Source of the DNA: Curvularia clavata
Taxonomy: Eukaryota
DNA: 64,000 nt
Assembly (NCBI GenBank): GCA_023920165.1
Contig: CP089281.1
Span: 1,984,001 to 2,048,000, forward strand
Direction of reading: 5' to 3'
In this document: positions 12,270 to 55,783 of the stretch, piece by piece
How positions within the stretch are numbered: the first letter of the stretch is position 1
Layout: each line of letters starts with the position of its first letter
The notes under the pieces: model-generated
What the model saw: the letters and a program-made list of their open reading frames with translations, nothing else
What the model was told of the DNA's origin: nothing
Database searches by the model: none
Position numbers and translations under genes: made by a program

Positions 12270-14578
12270 CTAGACTTCTTCAGATGTCTCGATCCAATTC
12301 TTCAGTCTTGCCTTTTCTGGATCTTCATTAATCGCAATCATGCCTGGTAGAGGCCACTGGCTGTGCGAGTGCTCTGCTAGCATCTGTTTGTCAGACTCAC
12401 TGATGATCGCAGCTGTAGCATACGTGCATATCAGTTGTAAGTCCTCAGGTCTCATGCTGGCTTGTAGTTGAGCACCAAGCAGCAGACCATTGTGGTACTT
12501 GAGGCCTTGGGTGGCCAGGCCCTGCGCTGAGAGAATCAAGATGGAGCGGTAGCCAGCCAAAGTGTTAGGATTGATGTCGGATTCTGTCTTAAGATTGCGA
12601 ATGACAGCGTTCCCGATGATTGTCAAGGCGAATGCGATCCATGGATCATAAAACTCCCAACTGTGCCGTGCGTAGTATAAGCAGGTGACCGTCTCTAGCA
12701 TTATCCGCGTTGTGTTAAGAGCTGATCGAGGGTTCTCTTCTGTGCCTAGGCCCAAGGCTTCAGTTTCGTTTAAGCGGCTGCCATCCACAATGAGTTGCAC
12801 AACACTCTGTACAACTTGCCAATACTGAATACTTGGGATGATGTTAGTGCTTTAAGTGCAGTTCAATTGCAAAAGACTGCATTAGAGCAACATCGCAGTC
12901 ATTAGAGATAGAAAGGAACGTACTGTAACATTAGATGAGACGGCAAGAAGAGCATTTCCGGCTGCAGTGGTTCGGGCAGTGTATCCTTCCAATGATCGAG
13001 TTTGCCTTTTAGTATGGCAACATCATCCAGGTTCAACGGTTGTGATGATGGTCTCTTAAACAAAAGCAGCCCTGTCTCATTCATGATTGCATGCAAAGCT
13101 GCCTCTGAATGAAACTTGAACCCAATGTAGGATGGTACTATTTTTTGGTCACGGGGATATTGTAACCAAATCTCTCCATACCACGACTCGTCCAGCTGCG
13201 GGTCTGGTAATGGAATTTGTGGAGGTTGGCTAAAGTGTGGTTGCCGAAAAAAGAAAAAATCGAACATGGCTTGCCAAGAGAAGAGCGCCCATGCCGTAAA
13301 GAGGCGAGCTTTCGCCATGTCCGTGCCTGCGCTGTGGTTGTTGGTTCCAAACAACCCCAGGTCCTCGCTCATCTTGCAAGCCCGCTCTGAATAGATTGCT
13401 CCGATTTCGTCTAAGCCGTTGTTTGTGGTATTGTAACTCATTATCAATGCCGCTTGTATAGTCGTGATGCTGCTCTTTCCTGGCAACGACTCCAAATCCC
13501 AAAGTCGTCTCGCTTCGGCCATGAATCGATAAGTAAGGGAATCCGGGAGCCATATCTTGGACTGGTTCGGGATATCAGAACAGCTTTGCTAGAGGCAGTC
13601 AGCTCTATATCATTCTTAATGGCAAGAGATTCATACACAAGCATTTGCAAGCATAGCATTGACCAGCAACGGTGAGCAGAAGGAAGTCCGACCCGCCGCC
13701 ATGTCATTTAAGAATAGATCCTTGTGCACGAAAGGGCCACAAGGATGAGGGTAGCAGAAGTAGGAGCAGATGAGTCGTCTGAATAAACGATCATCAGAGA
13801 TGACATTGGTCCATGGTGCCGCTGTAACGCTGTCCACTAGTGGCTCAACCAGTTGCGCAGTATGGTACGGAAGCTCGTAAGCGCTCTGGTGGCTACTAGC
13901 AAGCGTTGCACGCTGTCTGTTAGTCTTGATTTTATACTGACCTTGACAAGCGAGACTGCTCTTGTTGGCATTATCAACTCTATCACCTTCGTTTGAGGCG
14001 TCGCAGGGGCTGTTTGAAGGAAGAAATGTAGACATATAGAGCAAGGACTCCAGATATGGATTGCCCGCAACGAAGAGATGGCTGGGCATCTCACTTATCA
14101 GAGGAAATTCATACCGGCGAGTGGTCTCTGGTGCCACAGACAATTGCAGGAGTAGATTCCCATCCCTCGCATGCTTTACGATGGACTCAACATCTGCGCC
14201 AGCTTTCAGGCGAAGAAATATCTTCGCTGCATCTTGCTCATCCATTGTTCTTAGAAGTTCGATAAACTCCTCGTAAACAGATTGTCTTTGCTGTAAACGC
14301 TCGTGTTTCTTCCGAATCTGGCGCGTTTCTGTCGGATTGTAGTGGCACGTTGAGTTACGCCTGGTGCAGGCACCACAAGTTGGCAAGCCATCACACTGGG
14401 CTGCTTAGCTCAATGCAACAATTGTATACTGGGCAGCGAGTAGCAATGTATCTACCTTCAATTTATGCCGGCGGCAGCTCTCGCATGCAGATACTACCTG
14501 TCGCTTCTTCGGACGATCCGCCTCTGGTGGAGGCCTCGATGGCCGTACGGCTGGTAAAAGCGGTCGCAAAGGGTTCAT
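12270..14578 (-). CDS. Zn(II)2Cys6 transcription factor with fungal-specific TF middle domain
   Basis: ACESCRRHKLK-(intron)-CDGLPTCGACTRRNSTC zinc cluster. Downstream exons carry FCSPLLVNAMLA, TIQAALIM and RLFTAWALF. Confidence 0.88.
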
Positions 14579-17493: not shown

Positions 17494-18444
17494 TTTTGAG
17501 TCGAAAGGCGACGAACGAATTGCTGATGGTTGTGATTTGAACAGCGAGCCCTCGAATTTAATTACATGCTCCTTTGCATTCACATGAACCAAAACATCGA
17601 GACCTATTTCTTATCCATTGTAATGTTTGTCTACGCGCCATGCTGCTTTGATTTGCGAAGAAGGCTCAATCATGAGAGCAGGGCCTAAATAGCACCAGCC
17701 CTGTCAGGGGATTGTAATGGGAAAAACTAGCAACACCGGGACTTGCTTCAGTCAGATTCATAGGCTGATTACGTGTATCTATTATGCGGAGCTGATTATC
17801 CTGTACACTGAGGAATTAAAGATTCCAGAAGCGGAGTATCAGTCTCAAATACATGTTTTGGGATTTTCAACTAGCTAGAACCGAGGTAATGTAATGTAGA
17901 GTATTTCTTCTGAATCTTCTCTGATACTTTTCTTTACGCTAATTTCATGACCATAGCAATAGCGGAAAATACTATGCCCAACTATGAGAGTTGTAAACTC
18001 GACTGCAATTTATGGTACTACCTTGGTGCTACTGTTTGAGCGACCGCCAGGAACTGATGCGTTCTGGCCAGTCCAGGGAGAATGCGGAATACGACGTAAG
18101 CCCAGATACTATCTCAAGGGGGCTAGAAAGGCTAATAAGACCGTATCAAATTATCGGCATAGCGTATGTCGGAGTTGGTATTCATCACAGATCATGAATA
18201 GACGATGCCACGAAGTGGTTGCATGTGATGACCCACCAAAAGTGTCAAGTTACCCGACCTAAGCTATCACTCCGACACTGCGGAGTAGAACCTGGCGTAC
18301 TGACGTTCTCCTCCGCCCCCCATCTCCGTTTTCGTCTATCCGCATTGAGATAAGATGTAAACCAAGGTAAGTTTTGTTCCCATAGTTTAAATACCACTCT
18401 ACTCTAGCCCAGACACCACCCTACTCATAAAGTAAGACTGGACC

Positions 18445-19543
18445 TTACTCTTTTTTCCTGCCGGCTTTCTATACCAGTAATAGTGGTTAGAAAAGTAGTT
18501 TTCTAATGTAACCTATAGATATAAAGTTTACTTACTTTCTAGAAAAATATCAATACGAGAAAATTATTGCATTAGTCTATAGTATAAGTATATTGGAGAT
18601 ACTTACGACCTAAAGTAGTAGTAAAGGTTAGTTAAGTGTTTTATTATATAGGTATATCAGATTTACCTACCATCTATACAAGTAGTAGTTATTAGTAGAG
18701 TATCTTGTATTCTATGGTATGGATACGTCAGATTTACTTACATCCTATGTGAGTAGTGGTAATTAATAAAAAGTTCTATGAGATAGTCTATTAGATTGCC
18801 TTACCATCTATATAAGTAATAGTTATTAGTAGAGTATTCTATTAACATGTTATATCAGCATGTTATATTTACTTACGATCTGAAGCAAAGTAGTTAACTG
18901 TTAGTAAATTATCTAATTAGTCGCCAGGAAAGATATATCCATTTACTCACCTTCTATAATATTTGTTTTCATTAGTAAATTCATTTATGAGTGTCTTTTG
19001 AAAGGTATAGAGATTTCTTACAGCCTATACGTGTAGTAGTTATCAGTAAGAGGTCTTCTTAATCTACTGTTTACTTATATTAGATTTAACGACTTACAAT
19101 CTACATCCATCAATTTTATTAGCAAAGCATCTTATCAGTCTGTGTATTGAGTAGTTATGTTAAGACCACTTACAGCCTGTACCAGTGATTGTTAGTAAAG
19201 TACTAAATATGTACATAATGTAGATAAATAGGGTTTAATTACACTCTATATCAATATTAGTCTATTACATCAATACCTCAGATTGACTTACTTTCTATAT
19301 CACCAGCAGTTATAAACAAATTATTACTTTAACGTATCGCGTATATAATTAGTATTTGCTTACATCCTATATTAGTAGAAGTAGTAATTAGCAAATTATC
19401 TTATTAGTCTGTTGTGGGAATACATGGGATTTACTTACGTCTCTGACCTGAACAGTGTTCCTCTGAATGTTTTCTTCCTCTCGCGCATTTGAGACTCCAT
19501 ACATAAGAGGTAGTAACATACTTAAGAGTATAAAGAATCTCAT
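18445..19543 (-). CDS. Micro-exon gene: 15 exons (105 nt, thirteen 3-nt exons, 24 nt) encoding a predicted 55-aa secreted peptide precursor
   Basis: Exon 1 (19543-19439) = MRFFILLSMLLPLMYGVSNAREEENIQRNTVQVRD. Then 3-nt exons with plus-strand low coordinates 19364, 19292, 19243, 19174, 19098, 19022, 18951, 18877, 18805, 18742, 18671, 18607, 18536 = D,K,S,A,I,A,K,I,M,D,M,V,K. Last exon (18468-18445) = KAGRKKE*. All 14 introns are phase-0 GT..AG, 46-73 nt. Confidence 0.8.
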
Positions 19544-19655
19544 GTTAGGCTCTTATAGCTGGAAAAATGTAATTCTTGTAATGTAGATAGAAAGTAATTG
19601 CGCGATTCACAGTTGTCGAAACTTTTAATTTCTAAAGTTAGAAGAATAATATACA

Positions 19656-19662
19656 TTTTATA
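19656..19662 (-). promoter_or_regulatory. Candidate TATA box of the micro-exon gene
   Basis: TATAAAA on the minus strand ~113 bp upstream of the ATG at 19543. The AT-rich context weakens the signal. Confidence 0.35.
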
Positions 19663-20804
19663 GGCACCGGTAGTTATAAAGAATATAGGTATTATCTCTA
19701 GAGGTGGGGCCGTTACAGATGCCGATGATAATATAGGGGTTTAGTACAAGCCTAGCGAATAGCTAAGCAGTCTAGTCAAGATTCGCTTTTGATAGCAGCA
19801 TACCCAATAAGATAAAAGCAAAGATACTGGTTAATATCATGAGATTTAGACATGATAATAGCTCTTGAGCCTCTATCAGATACACATCGGGCCCCCATCG
19901 GGTACCTCTCATGTACCGATCCCGATACAAAACTTTAGTCTGCAGCCATGGTAGGTTTTTATAGCTATAGCTCTGATATTAGACTAGCAAATCATATACT
20001 TTTGTAGATATTATAGTTATCTAGAGATTCCTATGTATTACATTTACATATGCATTAGTCACACTACTATTAAGATTCTAAGAGACTTTACTTAACATAT
20101 ATCTAGATATAGATCTTAGTAATTTTAGGATTTTAATGAGATTTTAGGTAGCGCACTTAGCTATATAATGTATGTGCCTGTGAGATATGTTATAAAAGAA
20201 GGATATATCACGCCTAAGCATAGTTGATCAGCTCTCTTGTTAGTGTTAGAGAATGATGCGCTGAGAGAACCAGAGCTGCAAAGTAGATACGCATTACACT
20301 TAGCTATGTTCAAGAACACGAAAGACAAACCAAAAGTCTAGAAGAGAAAGCGTTCTGTTATACTGAGCATCCCGGAACTCTTCCATCGACATCAGCGCAA
20401 TTATTGTGTCTTGGAGACAGCACAGCAGGAGCGGGTACTTATTTATAGCTAGCACGTGAACTAAAGTATTAATCTGGGGGTTATCGTGTGGGTATCAGCC
20501 AAGTCCGGGTTTCTAGCCCGATGGCCTGGCATCAGGCCTTCCATGATCTTATTCCCTTTCCTAGCACCTACCGCTACGCCTGTGTAATATGTGCAGCTAT
20601 CCCTTTACACCAATTACAGAACAAGAAGCCGAGCAAGAAAGAACAGAGTGTAAAGATAAACATTGTCGTTGCCGATTCTAGCCGGTAATGAACAAACAGC
20701 TATGCAGATGCTCAGATCCGATAATATATACACATTAGAAGACGAAAATCTCATCTTCAAGACTAATAATTTGCACACACGAAAGGTCTCTACAAGATCA
20801 TCAT

Positions 20805-21434
20805 CTAAGCAGGAGCAGAAGAGTAGAGGCACTTCTTGGGCTCGGCCTCCTTGAGCGCCTTCATGGTGAAGGGAGTGCATCCCTCAGAACCAGCAGGCTT
20901 GTCGACACCAGAGAGCCAGATCTTCCAGCCTCCGCCAACAGCGCCAGGGCAAGCCTGGAAGCCAACATCGCCAGTCAGACCACCAGCAGCGAAGACGAGG
21001 TCACCATCGTCGTTGATCTTGAAGGGGCCGCGCTCCTGGTTCTTGCCAATGGGCTGGACACCGGTGGAGTAGCGGACATTGCCCTGGCCCATGCCGCTGC
21101 GGTCGACGTACAGCTGGAGAGGAGGGTTGAAGGTATAGATGTAGACGCTGCCATCATTCTCATCGAGTGAGAAGGAGGCGTAGTTGATGCCGCTGGTGGT
21201 ATTGTCGCGGTCGCCGTTGACGATACAGGTCTTGTTGTTCTGGTCGGGCGAATTGATGACGAGACTGCCGTCCTTGGCTTGGACGTTGCCGTACTGGATG
21301 GCGGTACCAGTGCGCAGAGACATCAGACGGAAGACGTCGCCAGCCTCGGGGCGAGGGAAGGGAAGAGAGGCTTGGGGAAGAGCGGAGGAGATGGCGGCCA
21401 TGGAGGCAGCGGCGGCGGCGGCGGTGAACTTCAT
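20805..21434 (-). CDS. phiA: PhiA-like secreted cell wall protein
   Basis: Signal peptide plus QLYVDRSGMGQG, GFQACP and GCTPF motifs. Strong codon bias suggests high expression. Confidence 0.75.
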   Translation of the reverse strand: MKFTAAAAAASMAAISSALPQASLPFPRPEAGDVFRLMSLRTGTAIQYGNVQAKDGSLVINSPDQNNKTCIVNGDRDNTTSGINYASFSLDENDGSVYIYTFNPPLQLYVDRSGMGQGNVRYSTGVQPIGKNQERGPFKINDDGDLVFAAGGLTGDVGFQACPGAVGGGWKIWLSGVDKPAGSEGCTPFTMKALKEAEPKKCLYSSAPA

Positions 21435-22620
21435 GGTGATGGTTTAGAGGTGATGTTATTGAAGTGTGGAAGTGGTAGTTGTAGTGATTAATTATTGGTG
21501 TGGGATTGATAAGTTGGTGTTTGGATGGAAGTCTACAAAGAGAGCATCCCATCTCTCATATATACAAATGCCATCTCGTATTTACTCCCCTTGTCCTACA
21601 TCATCTCACAATCAAAGCTTGTCCCCAGCGAGGCTCAGCAGTGCCCATGCTTGGCGCCGACGACCAAAGTGCAACGTTATGACTTCATCCAATGATAAAT
21701 TATCGTATCCCCAGTTTTGTGACCCTGAAATGGCCAGCACCGGCTGTGGCGTGGCCCCCACCCATGACGATCTAAGAAGGTTTCGGGCAGGAATGACGCA
21801 CAACCGCCACTGTATTTCCCCGAAGTGCTTGGCAAACATCCGAAAGAGGTAAAGCGCGACCACTTCTCAAACTCTAATTGGTGACGGCCTCGGCCGATAC
21901 ACTGCTCAAAATAGAAACAGTAATATCGTCTCTAGAAAACAGTTATGCCGAGGATATGCCTTTCAAACTAAATGTTTGCGTTAGGACACAGACATCTCTA
22001 GTCAAATACTATAGCAGATCACAAGACGATATTACTCTAAAACTATGGAGATAAACAACTGGGACTGGACGAAATTCTGGCCCTGACCAATACGAGGCAC
22101 GATATGCCAAGACCTAGTTAGTTTAGGTTAATCCAGCCCTGTTTGCTCTAACCCTGCTTTTGCTAGTCAGCAAGGGAGTAACTAGTTAGGGCTATATAAC
22201 CCCAGTAATCGCTAGAGAGTTTCGCTAGAGATTCGTCTCGTGAATATACGACTGTTTACACGTGATTTGTTCTTGTCCAGCCGGTATTGTGCTCACATCC
22301 GACCGAAAGTCTAACACCTAGCAGGGGGTAGGCGCCTATGCAACTTCGCAACTTCCCCGCTAGGACATACAAGTAAACAGCGCCCAGCGCTTACTTCCTC
22401 CGCCAAACACCGTTATTGAGTTACAGCTAATACTAACACGCTTACCTGCTCTTATCGGCTTCTGTCTTGTTTCCACATTTTTATCATGTTACCAGAGTTT
22501 ACCTGCAATCTGCTGGAGACCCTCCCCCTACCACCCTGGAAAGAGGAACTAGTCTGGAACCTCCACGCAACAAACAAATGGGAGAAGCGAATTCCGTTTT
22601 CGTACTACGTGCAGCCTACA

Positions 22621-23793
22621 ATGAGTACTACTACATATGCCTCTAGGCGACAAGCGACATTCTTCCACCAATTCAGCTTGCTTCCAGCGGAGTTACAGTT
22701 CCGTGTTCTTAGCTTTTGTCCAGCCACTACTCTTTTCCAGCTTATGCGCGTCTCTTCTGTTCTACGTACTGAAGCGTCAAAGCTCTTTTGGTCAAATCCA
22801 GATGCATATTTTCTTGTAGAGGCATACTGGCTTCTGAATGGAGGCTTCCCTGGCTATCACTGCTACGATCCAGCTTTCCTTGAAAATGTGCAGAATGTGG
22901 AGATTGAGTACGAGCCTAGCACGAATAATGAAATCTGGCCACGTTTCACTGGGAACAGTAAGATTCGACTAGACCTGATCAGTACCTTTTGGGAAAGCGT
23001 AAAATGGAGGTTTCCCCAAGTGAAGAAAATAGTCATAAACCAGAACGGTGAGCCTAGAATATGGAAGAGCGCCGACACAGTTCCACCACCGCTGCAAGCC
23101 TTAGTAGAGGCATGTCCTCCCACAATCGATATCCGTGTTCTCGTCTCAGAGAGAAAACCTCTTCCTAACGCTGAAATCAATACCGAAATCCAACCTGTAA
23201 CGACTTGGCAGAGATCTGTCTATCAGTTCACGTCGACTCACACGTGGACGAAAGTGGAATCTAGGCATAGTCAGACAATTCTTCTGCCCATAGGTCAATT
23301 TGATGGACTAGTTGGGAGGTTTGAAATGCTTAAACAGAGATGCGCAAGGATTCGGCTTCAACGTTACGGCCTCTGGCCTCTTGCTATCCAAGCTCTCGAT
23401 CGCCATCATTTCGACAGCGGCAGAAACAACCCTTTCGCGTGCCCATGGCCGGCTTGCGATGCATACTTCGACAGGGCTGGAGCATGGACTACACATGCGG
23501 CCATATCCCATTACCATTATCCAAGTCAGCTCAGTATCCTTCCGGATGATATACAATCACTATGGGAGCAACATGTGGGTTTACTAGAAGAGAGTCAAAA
23601 ACAAGCGAAGACTCAGTTTAGGAAAATTCGGGAAGAGTGGGAAAATGCAGGGCTAGATGGGAGAGGCATGATAGAGCGTACTTGGAGAGAGCAGCTGGGG
23701 ACTGATAACCGACGGGACGCGTCTAGCCAGGAAACAAGAGAGAACAAAACATGGGAAAGCTTTGTAAACTGGGCAAATGGAGACGACTACTAG
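22621..23793 (+). CDS. F-box-like hypothetical protein with a C-terminal C2H2-like motif
   Basis: FHQFSLLPAELQFRVLSFC is F-box-like, and CPWPACDAYF...WTTHAAISH is C2H2-like. The start may instead be the ATG at 22486. Confidence 0.65.
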   Translation: MSTTTYASRRQATFFHQFSLLPAELQFRVLSFCPATTLFQLMRVSSVLRTEASKLFWSNPDAYFLVEAYWLLNGGFPGYHCYDPAFLENVQNVEIEYEPSTNNEIWPRFTGNSKIRLDLISTFWESVKWRFPQVKKIVINQNGEPRIWKSADTVPPPLQALVEACPPTIDIRVLVSERKPLPNAEINTEIQPVTTWQRSVYQFTSTHTWTKVESRHSQTILLPIGQFDGLVGRFEMLKQRCARIRLQRYGLWPLAIQALDRHHFDSGRNNPFACPWPACDAYFDRAGAWTTHAAISHYHYPSQLSILPDDIQSLWEQHVGLLEESQKQAKTQFRKIREEWENAGLDGRGMIERTWREQLGTDNRRDASSQETRENKTWESFVNWANGDDY

Positions 23794-55700: not shown

Positions 55701-55783
55701 AGCTCGTGGCGGGTTATCTTGGTCAGATCCCAGATTCAGGTGTGACACCGACCTTCCCTAGGCTGGAAAGCACTATTTTCTAG
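43716..55783 (+). CDS. Iterative hybrid PKS-NRPS: KS-AT-DH-(inactive MT)-(inactive ER)-KR-ACP-C-A-T-R, ~3912 aa
   Basis: Six GT-AG introns (45593-45645, 47284-47336, 50112-50172, 50528-50578, 51186-51242, 53694-53747) leave 11739 nt in frame. Motifs: KS DTACSSS/EAHGTGT/GHTEG, AT GHSSG, DH HRFQGQIIIP, KR GLTGELG/GQSNY, ACP LGVDSL, C HHIIMDG, A FTSGSTGKPKG/YGPTE, T GGNSL, R TGATGFLG/YVSSK. Confidence 0.97.

Follow-up and report, generated by a model that had tools for sequence, protein, structure and literature searches.

A candidate fungal gene with thirteen predicted single-codon exons in tandem

The array gene and its surroundings

The DNA analysed here is a 64,000-nucleotide (64-kb) stretch of Curvularia clavata (contig CP089281.1, positions 1,984,001 to 2,048,000), referred to below as the window. 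From 19543 to 18445 its minus strand carries what we call the array gene: a script parse resolves this interval into a 105-nucleotide (nt) exon 1, 14 introns, 13 micro-exons of 3 nt and a 24-nt last exon, with the ATG standing in a good context at 19543 and a TAA closing the last exon at 18445. Joined, these exons give a coding sequence (CDS) of 168 nt, that is, 55 codons and a single terminal stop, with 39 of the 168 coding nt sitting in micro-exons. Every one of the 13 internal exons measures 3 nt, and all 14 introns run from GT to YAG over 46-73 nt (introns 1-13, in order: 72, 69, 46, 66, 73, 73, 68, 71, 69, 60, 68, 61 and 68 nt). The 13 triplets represent 10 different codons, and the unit lengths (intron plus codon, 49-76 nt) are irregular and mostly not multiples of 3. 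The initial annotation of this DNA, made from the letters alone, had proposed exactly this division (exon 1, 14 introns of 46-73 nt, 13 one-codon exons, a terminal exon and a 168-nt CDS); our parse reproduces it to the base, with identical donors and identical codons. The annotation had also remarked that the stretch lacks an entry in its track of open reading frames (ORFs), and indeed neither strand holds a stop-free stretch of at least 50 codons, in any frame, between 18421 and 19387; exon 1 is contained in an ORF at 19388-19552. The G+C content is 0.27-0.32 over the introns and goes up at both flanking exons. The features are listed below in the order of transcription, each branch motif with its distance in nt from the 3' end of the intron.

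19656..19662 (-): TATAAAA box, 113-119 nt upstream of the ATG, a putative promoter element
19439..19543 (-): exon 1, 105 nt; ATG, hydrophobic signal-peptide-like start, charged stretch, GTAAGT donor at the end
19367..19438 (-): intron 1, 72 nt, GTAAGT...TAG, CTAAT at 21
19364..19366 (-): micro-exon 1, 3 nt; three extra bases in a relative (run X3), near a contig end
19295..19363 (-): intron 2, 69 nt, GTAAGC...TAG, no YTRAY within 40 nt of the acceptor; weakest branch site
19292..19294 (-): micro-exon 2, 3 nt
19246..19291 (-): intron 3, 46 nt, GTAAGT...TAG; with 3 nt of exon (49 nt) doubled in the X3 relative
19243..19245 (-): micro-exon 3, 3 nt
19177..19242 (-): intron 4, 66 nt, GTAATT...CAG, CTAAC at 15
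19174..19176 (-): micro-exon 4, 3 nt
19101..19173 (-): intron 5, 73 nt, GTAAGT...TAG, CTAAT at 18
19098..19100 (-): micro-exon 5, 3 nt
19025..19097 (-): intron 6, 73 nt, GTAAGT...TAG, CTGAT at 18
19022..19024 (-): micro-exon 6, 3 nt
18954..19021 (-): intron 7, 68 nt, GTAAGA...TAG, CTAAT at 18; site of three small indels in relatives
18951..18953 (-): micro-exon 7, 3 nt
18880..18950 (-): intron 8, 71 nt, GTGAGT...CAG, CTAAC at 21
18877..18879 (-): micro-exon 8, 3 nt
18808..18876 (-): intron 9, 69 nt, GTAAGT...TAG, CTAAT at 18; nearest to intron 11 (81% identity)
18805..18807 (-): micro-exon 9, 3 nt
18745..18804 (-): intron 10, 60 nt, GTAAGG...TAG, TTAAT only, at 18
18742..18744 (-): micro-exon 10, 3 nt
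18674..18741 (-): intron 11, 68 nt, GTAAGT...TAG, CTAAT at 18
18671..18673 (-): micro-exon 11, 3 nt
18610..18670 (-): intron 12, 61 nt, GTAGGT...TAG, CTAAC at 18
18607..18609 (-): micro-exon 12, 3 nt
18539..18606 (-): intron 13, 68 nt, GTAAGT...TAG, CTAAT at 33
18536..18538 (-): micro-exon 13, 3 nt
18469..18535 (-): intron 14, 67 nt, GTAAGT...TAG, CTAAC at 18
18445..18468 (-): last coding exon, 24 nt; 7 codons and TAA, with a sharp rise in G+C

No comparable chain exists elsewhere in the window. A scanner that links a donor, 40-110 nt, a YAG, 3 nt and the next donor, run over both strands of the 64 kb, returned the chain of 13 as the only one of three or more units. Of 200 shuffled versions of the region, 193 contained no chain at all and the other 7 a longest chain of 1, and a pattern spanning five junctions matched once in the window and in none of 100 dinucleotide shuffles. 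Tandem Repeats Finder reported no array at the locus. When the exon length was relaxed to 1-15 nt, looser chains appeared at 55740 (+) and 4256 (-), with 5 and 6 intron-like stretches, respectively, separated by 'exons' of 2-14 nt; we rejected both, since their branch sites are not consistent and they lie barely above the shuffle maximum of 3 (in 10 kb), which makes chance the probable cause.

The predicted product would be a small protein with a hydrophobic beginning. By eye, exon 1 encodes an n-region, 15 hydrophobic residues and small residues at -3 and -1; the mean Kyte-Doolittle hydropathy of residues 3-17 is 2.2, and the opening 20 or so residues read like a putative signal peptide. An Rfam scan of 18200-19800 (E up to 1) yielded no RNA family, its one match (E 0.44) being irrelevant. 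We also considered a host gene for small nucleolar RNAs (snoRNAs) and rejected it: the Rfam scan places no snoRNA in the introns, which measure just 46-73 nt.

Three neighbouring genes place the locus in its genomic setting.

20805-21434 (-): PhiA-type gene, intronless, encoding a 209-aa secreted protein, 1.26 kb upstream of the array gene on the same strand
12270-14386 (-): zinc-cluster transcription factor gene with a Fungal_trans domain
22486-23793 (+): F-box gene

The 209-aa protein is 93% identical to a Bipolaris victoriae protein (named cell wall protein PhiA in UniRef) and 88-89% identical to proteins of Parastagonospora nodorum. Such matches mark the host as a Pleosporales-like Dothideomycete. 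Run X11, a probable RNA run under the same species label, has contigs on 20490-21459 and 22239-23000 only and none at the array, and is neutral on the expression of the array gene. Contig depth in this run is about 1294 at the PhiA-like gene and 13 at the F-box gene.

Common descent of the units and variation among relatives

The 14 units of the array fit one consensus over 72 columns (alignment A1), with a mean column identity of 61%; it consists of a donor, GTAAGTAAATCT, an inner ACTAAT, a branch site, TTTACTAAT, a pyrimidine-rich tail and a final TATAG. Mean pairwise identity between units is 0.65, as against 0.61 +/- 0.05 for shuffled interiors, and the copies are overall 46-81% identical, the best pair (introns 9 and 11) reaching 0.81 where the shuffle maximum is 0.71. 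Because the units share a consensus and their best pair exceeds the shuffles, the alignment leads us to conclude that all 14 come from one ancestral intron-plus-codon unit and have since diverged far. All 14 units have GT and AG, and 13 of them preserve donor positions +3, +4 and +5. A YTRAY branch motif is found in 13 units at a distance of 5-40 nt from the acceptor, which in 8 units is exactly 18 nt; the three exon columns of the alignment are unconserved. The introns of the neighbouring zinc-cluster factor gene are of the same style as those of the array. We read the intact splice grammar amid diverged interiors as a sign of purifying selection on splicing. The array lies in an A+T-rich block (18470-20400; G+C 0.27-0.36, TpA/ApT 1.16-1.42) inside DNA with a G+C content of 0.44-0.53.

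A second isolate and relatives retain the locus. Run X2, which bears the same species label, contains 92% of the sampled words of the locus. Three larger runs from three studies (X3, X5 and X6) provide unspliced DNA contigs that are about 92% identical to the window over the array, which they keep, with 60 differences in 742 nt, 48 in 556 and 42 in 553, respectively. All three share the same 1-nt indels at 18962, 18968 and 18983, within intron 7, and therefore represent one related lineage. Run X3 in addition holds a contig that repeats 19245-19293, an extra unit of 49 nt composed of a 46-nt intron and a 3-nt exon (a single contig, depth 4.3), and shows three bases inserted within micro-exon 1, at 9 nt from a contig end; both changes would be in frame if the gene is spliced as modelled. 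Upstream of the gene, 19544-20400 differs by about 1-6% in the relatives, as against about 8% in the array. Over the PhiA gene, the X11 contigs show 67 differences from the window in 970 nt, or about 7%. The species label evidently spans clearly diverged lineages.

Similar arrays in metagenome and viral contigs

Metagenome contigs were searched with the pattern GTAAGT-N(35-65)-TAG-NNN-GTAAG-N(35-65)-TAG-NNN-GTAAG, which matches at least 120 loci (L036-L155); all counts given here are made among the matches listed. Chains of at least 6 units occur in 52 loci and reduce to 48 non-redundant arrays, from which 15 microsatellites, 8 arrays with a constant triplet and 2 with units in multiples of 3 were set aside. 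At least 23 arrays with variable triplets are left; they have 6-32 units and fall into about 14 sequence groups. Their 292 triplets, 58 of them T-initial, include 2 stops, where positional composition predicts 13.6; if each codon type is counted a single time per array, stops number 2 of 145. Arrays of single-codon exons are common in environmental, fungal-looking contigs (examples are L047-L049, L073, L094/L095, L061, L057, L121, L093 and L104). Some intron units recur across contigs: L047 with L093; L094 with L103 and L142; L104 with L131 and L132; L120 with L121 and L122; and L139 with L140 and L154.

Several of these arrays adjoin recognizable coding sequence. In L114 (2290-3665, +), an ATG exon precedes a run of at least 8 single-codon exons (by eye, about 10), after which comes an in-phase ORF of 205 codons with a HET domain (E 1.5e-25); since this ORF has no Met before the domain, the protein could be made only through the array, spliced in frame. 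L048 has an ATG and one codon, more than 32 units and then an in-phase ORF of 125 codons. In L067 (71-560, +), a run of no fewer than four or five single-codon exons begins immediately after a signal-peptide-like exon of 29 codons. The initial annotation had recommended scanning fungal genomes for arrays behind signal-peptide exons; in the metagenome contigs the scan recovered the same plan in L067, but as the sole case among 69 strand-arrays. L109 and L097 carry short single-codon chains beside ORFs that look ankyrin-like by eye, recalling the NACHT-ankyrin genes of truffles discussed below; Pfam found nothing in the 55-aa piece of L097. On the 6.2-kb contig L044, 44 consecutive intron-like units of about 70 nt are all separated by GGA; they are either an intron-mimicking satellite or a stretch of 44 glycines encoded on as many exons.

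No sequence similarity links the array to any of these loci: blastn of 18300-19700 against the 155 retrieved metagenome and viral loci gave no match, and the strict five-junction pattern hit no metagenome contig. In viral contigs the loose pattern matched 35 loci, and the long chains among them (L008, L016, L009/L033 and L032) are near-identical coding repeats of phages and giant viruses. Together with L015, these repeats yield chains of 4-9 pseudo-introns and make a handy false-positive control.

Interpretation and comparison with known systems

We think it likely, though well short of certain, that the locus is a real, unannotated protein-coding gene of a Pleosporales-like filamentous fungus, in which the middle of the product is encoded on 13 single-codon exons and each mini-intron is removed. 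The DNA is best read as a gene, for it presents in succession a TATA box, an ATG, a signal-peptide-like exon, 14 introns in the style of the host and a stop in the last exon; comparable metagenome arrays lie in phase with real coding exons. Short fungal introns are usually recognised by intron definition. We posit a transcription start on the downstream side of the TATA box near 19660; the 14 short introns would each be recognised singly, by intron definition, and spliced out to give the 168-nt CDS and a 55-residue precursor. The first 20 or so residues, with small residues at -3 and -1, would serve as a signal peptide, and a peptide of about 35 residues, rich in Lys, Arg and Glu and devoid of cysteines, would then be secreted. 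The array itself probably grew through repeated tandem duplication of an intron plus a codon and still gains or loses whole units. Because each internal exon is one codon, any skip keeps the frame, so that several peptide variants are possible; the gene could produce them by exon skipping, as reported for the nank genes of Tuber. The claim of the initial annotation that this is a real gene holds insofar as the gene model best fits the DNA; transcription and splicing are predictions from the sequence.

A number of observations weigh against this interpretation. The sequencing runs listed as containing the locus include no RNA run, and transcription, splicing, secretion and exon skipping are all inferred from DNA. 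A collection of 5.8 billion proteins contains no protein of 28-90 aa that shares words with the 51-aa read-through ORF holding exon 1, so the gene is unannotated and no homologue is known. Introns 2 and 10 are without a good CTRAY branch site near the acceptor. The absence of stops from the 13 micro-exon codons carries no weight: all 13 begin with a purine, which makes a stop impossible. The amphipathic-helix signal is weak, with a hydrophobic moment of 0.56 that 8.4% of shuffles match. The invariance of GT and AG is partly built in, as the parse itself used these dinucleotides to delimit the units. The array, moreover, has the look of repeat-induced point mutation (RIP), with a TpA/ApT ratio of 1.42 and a (CpA+TpG)/(ApC+GpT) ratio of 0.63; since splice motifs rich in A, T and G are largely immune to RIP, the contrast between signals and interiors could be partly mutational. 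If RIP drove the divergence, the splice motifs could persist unselected, which would weaken the argument for purifying selection; RIP is not the whole story, however, because the units differ by many transversions and in length. As to the relatives, their substitutions (about 8%) are known as counts without positions and provide no argument for splice-site conservation between lineages, and the 3-base insertion in micro-exon 1 is tentative because it lies 9 nt from a contig end.

Some of these points would suit an array that is dead or was never functional, in which the unit expanded within a gene now silent or decaying and the signals persist because decay is recent or biased by RIP. RNA support and a homologue are both lacking, dinucleotide indices within the array are RIP-like, the array is about 8% off the relatives as against about 1-6% for the flanks, and the product is very small, with no domain detected in it. 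We nonetheless judge this unlikely, although it deserves to be taken seriously: the ATG, the signal-peptide-like exon, all 14 donor-acceptor pairs and the stop-bearing last exon are intact; the units, at 49-76 nt, are separated by many transversions and indels, beyond the transitions typical of RIP; and both a second isolate and a lineage at about 8% divergence preserve the array, with changes that are intron-internal or in-frame only. That the pattern is unrelated to splicing, a tandem repeat or satellite whose unit contains AG-NNN-GTAAG by chance, is very improbable. Look-alikes of this kind do exist, as witnessed by the chains of 5-9 in the viral coding repeats (L008, L016, L009/L033 and L032) and by the metagenome arrays listed, 15 of 48 of which are TAAG-like microsatellites while 8 of 48 have one constant 'codon'. 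At our locus, in contrast, the units are not near-identical (61% column identity) and escape Tandem Repeats Finder, their lengths vary irregularly and in most cases are not divisible by 3, stops close every frame across the array, 10 different codons appear among the 13 triplets, the branch motifs keep a fixed distance from the acceptor, and exons bearing the ATG and signal-peptide-like start on one side and the stop on the other bracket the whole.

The locus could also be spliced with the micro-exons mostly or all skipped, or function as RNA, whether as a non-coding transcript with many introns or as the origin of introns that proliferate; we hold this to be a little less probable than a dead array. 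Every subset of 3-nt exons stays in frame, the 3-bp exons of Tuber are reported to be alternatively spliced (excerpts of PMC9815663 and PMC4986451), and spliceosomes assembling 3 nt apart may interfere with one another. The five groups of metagenome arrays that share intron units across contigs likewise recall proliferating introns. Several facts pull the other way. Micro-exon codons vary while the signals stay; stops are depleted in the class as a whole (2 of 292 triplets among the matches listed, versus 13.6 expected); and the HET gene of L114 requires its array in frame. With regard to an RNA product, no Rfam family is found at the locus (best E 0.44), and introns of 46-73 nt are probably too short to hold snoRNAs.

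If the protein-coding reading is correct and the gene is spliced as written, the fungal spliceosome can join 13 consecutive one-codon exons, and an architecture known from truffle NOD-like receptor (NLR) genes extends to small secreted peptides in a plant-associated fungal order; such peptides would be candidate effectors or antimicrobial peptides. It is plausible that the array gene is a rare known design in a new form: one codon per exon would here spell out practically an entire small secreted peptide and not just part of an NLR or HET protein. A bolder proposition, which we regard as doubtful, is that codon-per-exon arrays are a widespread and hardly noticed means by which fungi construct and vary short stretches of peptide, of which the array gene may be the purest form, with skipping (up to 2^13 combinations) and the gain and loss of units yielding secreted variants. 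Metagenome arrays that fit such a class lie in some cases before HET domains, in one case each before and after ORFs that are ankyrin-like by eye, and in one case after a signal-peptide-like exon. Fungal annotations are blind to such genes, because gene finders and spliced aligners cannot place 3-nt exons; the arrays can be mined straight from DNA, provided that coding repeats, microsatellites and constant-triplet satellites are filtered out. The locus also offers a clear picture of intron multiplication by unit duplication, with 14 diverged copies and one more in a relative.

Isolated 3-nt micro-exons are documented in animals, including Drosophila homothorax (PMC7392893), human MAP4K5 (PMC8632122) and RPS24, according to the excerpts available. 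They show that a spliceosome can include a 3-nt exon, as the array gene would need; they are, however, single, lie between long introns and depend on exon-definition factors, whereas the array gene has 13 in a row between mini-introns. Judged by its titles, the literature on 3-nt exons deals with single animal and plant exons and one Ganoderma gene, with no arrays among them.

Intron multiplication offers a second comparison. Introner-like elements occur in Dothideomycetes (PMC4457414, in part) and resemble the array in being short canonical fungal introns that multiply, in the same fungal class as the likely host. They are near-identical and dispersed in unrelated genes, whereas the array copies are tandem, within one gene and strongly diverged (46-81% identical); tandem arrays go unmentioned in the portions available of the literature on introner-like elements and stwintrons. 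Introns can also be gained by tandem genomic duplication according to the AGGT model (PMC4974935), and an experimental demonstration of the process is mentioned elsewhere (PMC8469720), as far as the excerpts of both papers go. The array has features of such a process, in that neighbouring introns are homologous and copy number shifts by a whole unit (in X3, on one contig); the shared consensus and the one-unit difference in a relative are the footprint expected of duplications that carry AG|GT boundaries, as the model is described there. Published cases add one or a few introns, in contrast to 14 successive units in which the duplicated exon part is a single codon.

The micro-exon genes (MEGs) of Schistosoma are animal genes for secreted products in which a signal-peptide exon is accompanied by many short symmetric exons of 6-36 nt. 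The initial annotation had drawn an analogy with them, which stands as a way of working and not as a family relationship. In both, short symmetric exons follow a first exon and skips keep the frame, and the signal-peptide-like exon 1 of the array gene would correspond to the signal-peptide exon of the MEGs; the exons of the array gene, however, are 3 nt long, account for 39 of 168 coding nt and have no homology to those of the MEGs. Nor is a platyhelminth origin indicated: the host is fungal, and the neighbours of the gene include one with a Fungal_trans domain and a Bipolaris-like PhiA (93% identical).

A fungal precedent does exist, contrary to the statement in the initial annotation that no fungal gene built from one-codon exons was known. 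In Tuber melanosporum the nank genes, which encode NACHT-ankyrin NLRs, are described as containing 3-bp exons by the dozen, which are alternatively spliced (Iotti et al. 2012, as reported in parts of PMC9815663 and PMC4986451). As far as these accounts go, the nank genes and the array gene have in common runs of codon-sized exons, short canonical introns, a filamentous ascomycete host and frame-neutral skips. Alternative splicing of the mini-exons is reported there as a means of diversification in Tuber, whereas splicing of the array gene is predicted only. The same sources present the nank products as large intracellular NLRs of a Pezizomycete; the array gene would instead specify a 55-codon precursor of a secreted peptide, with neither NACHT nor ankyrin, in a Pleosporales-like Dothideomycete.

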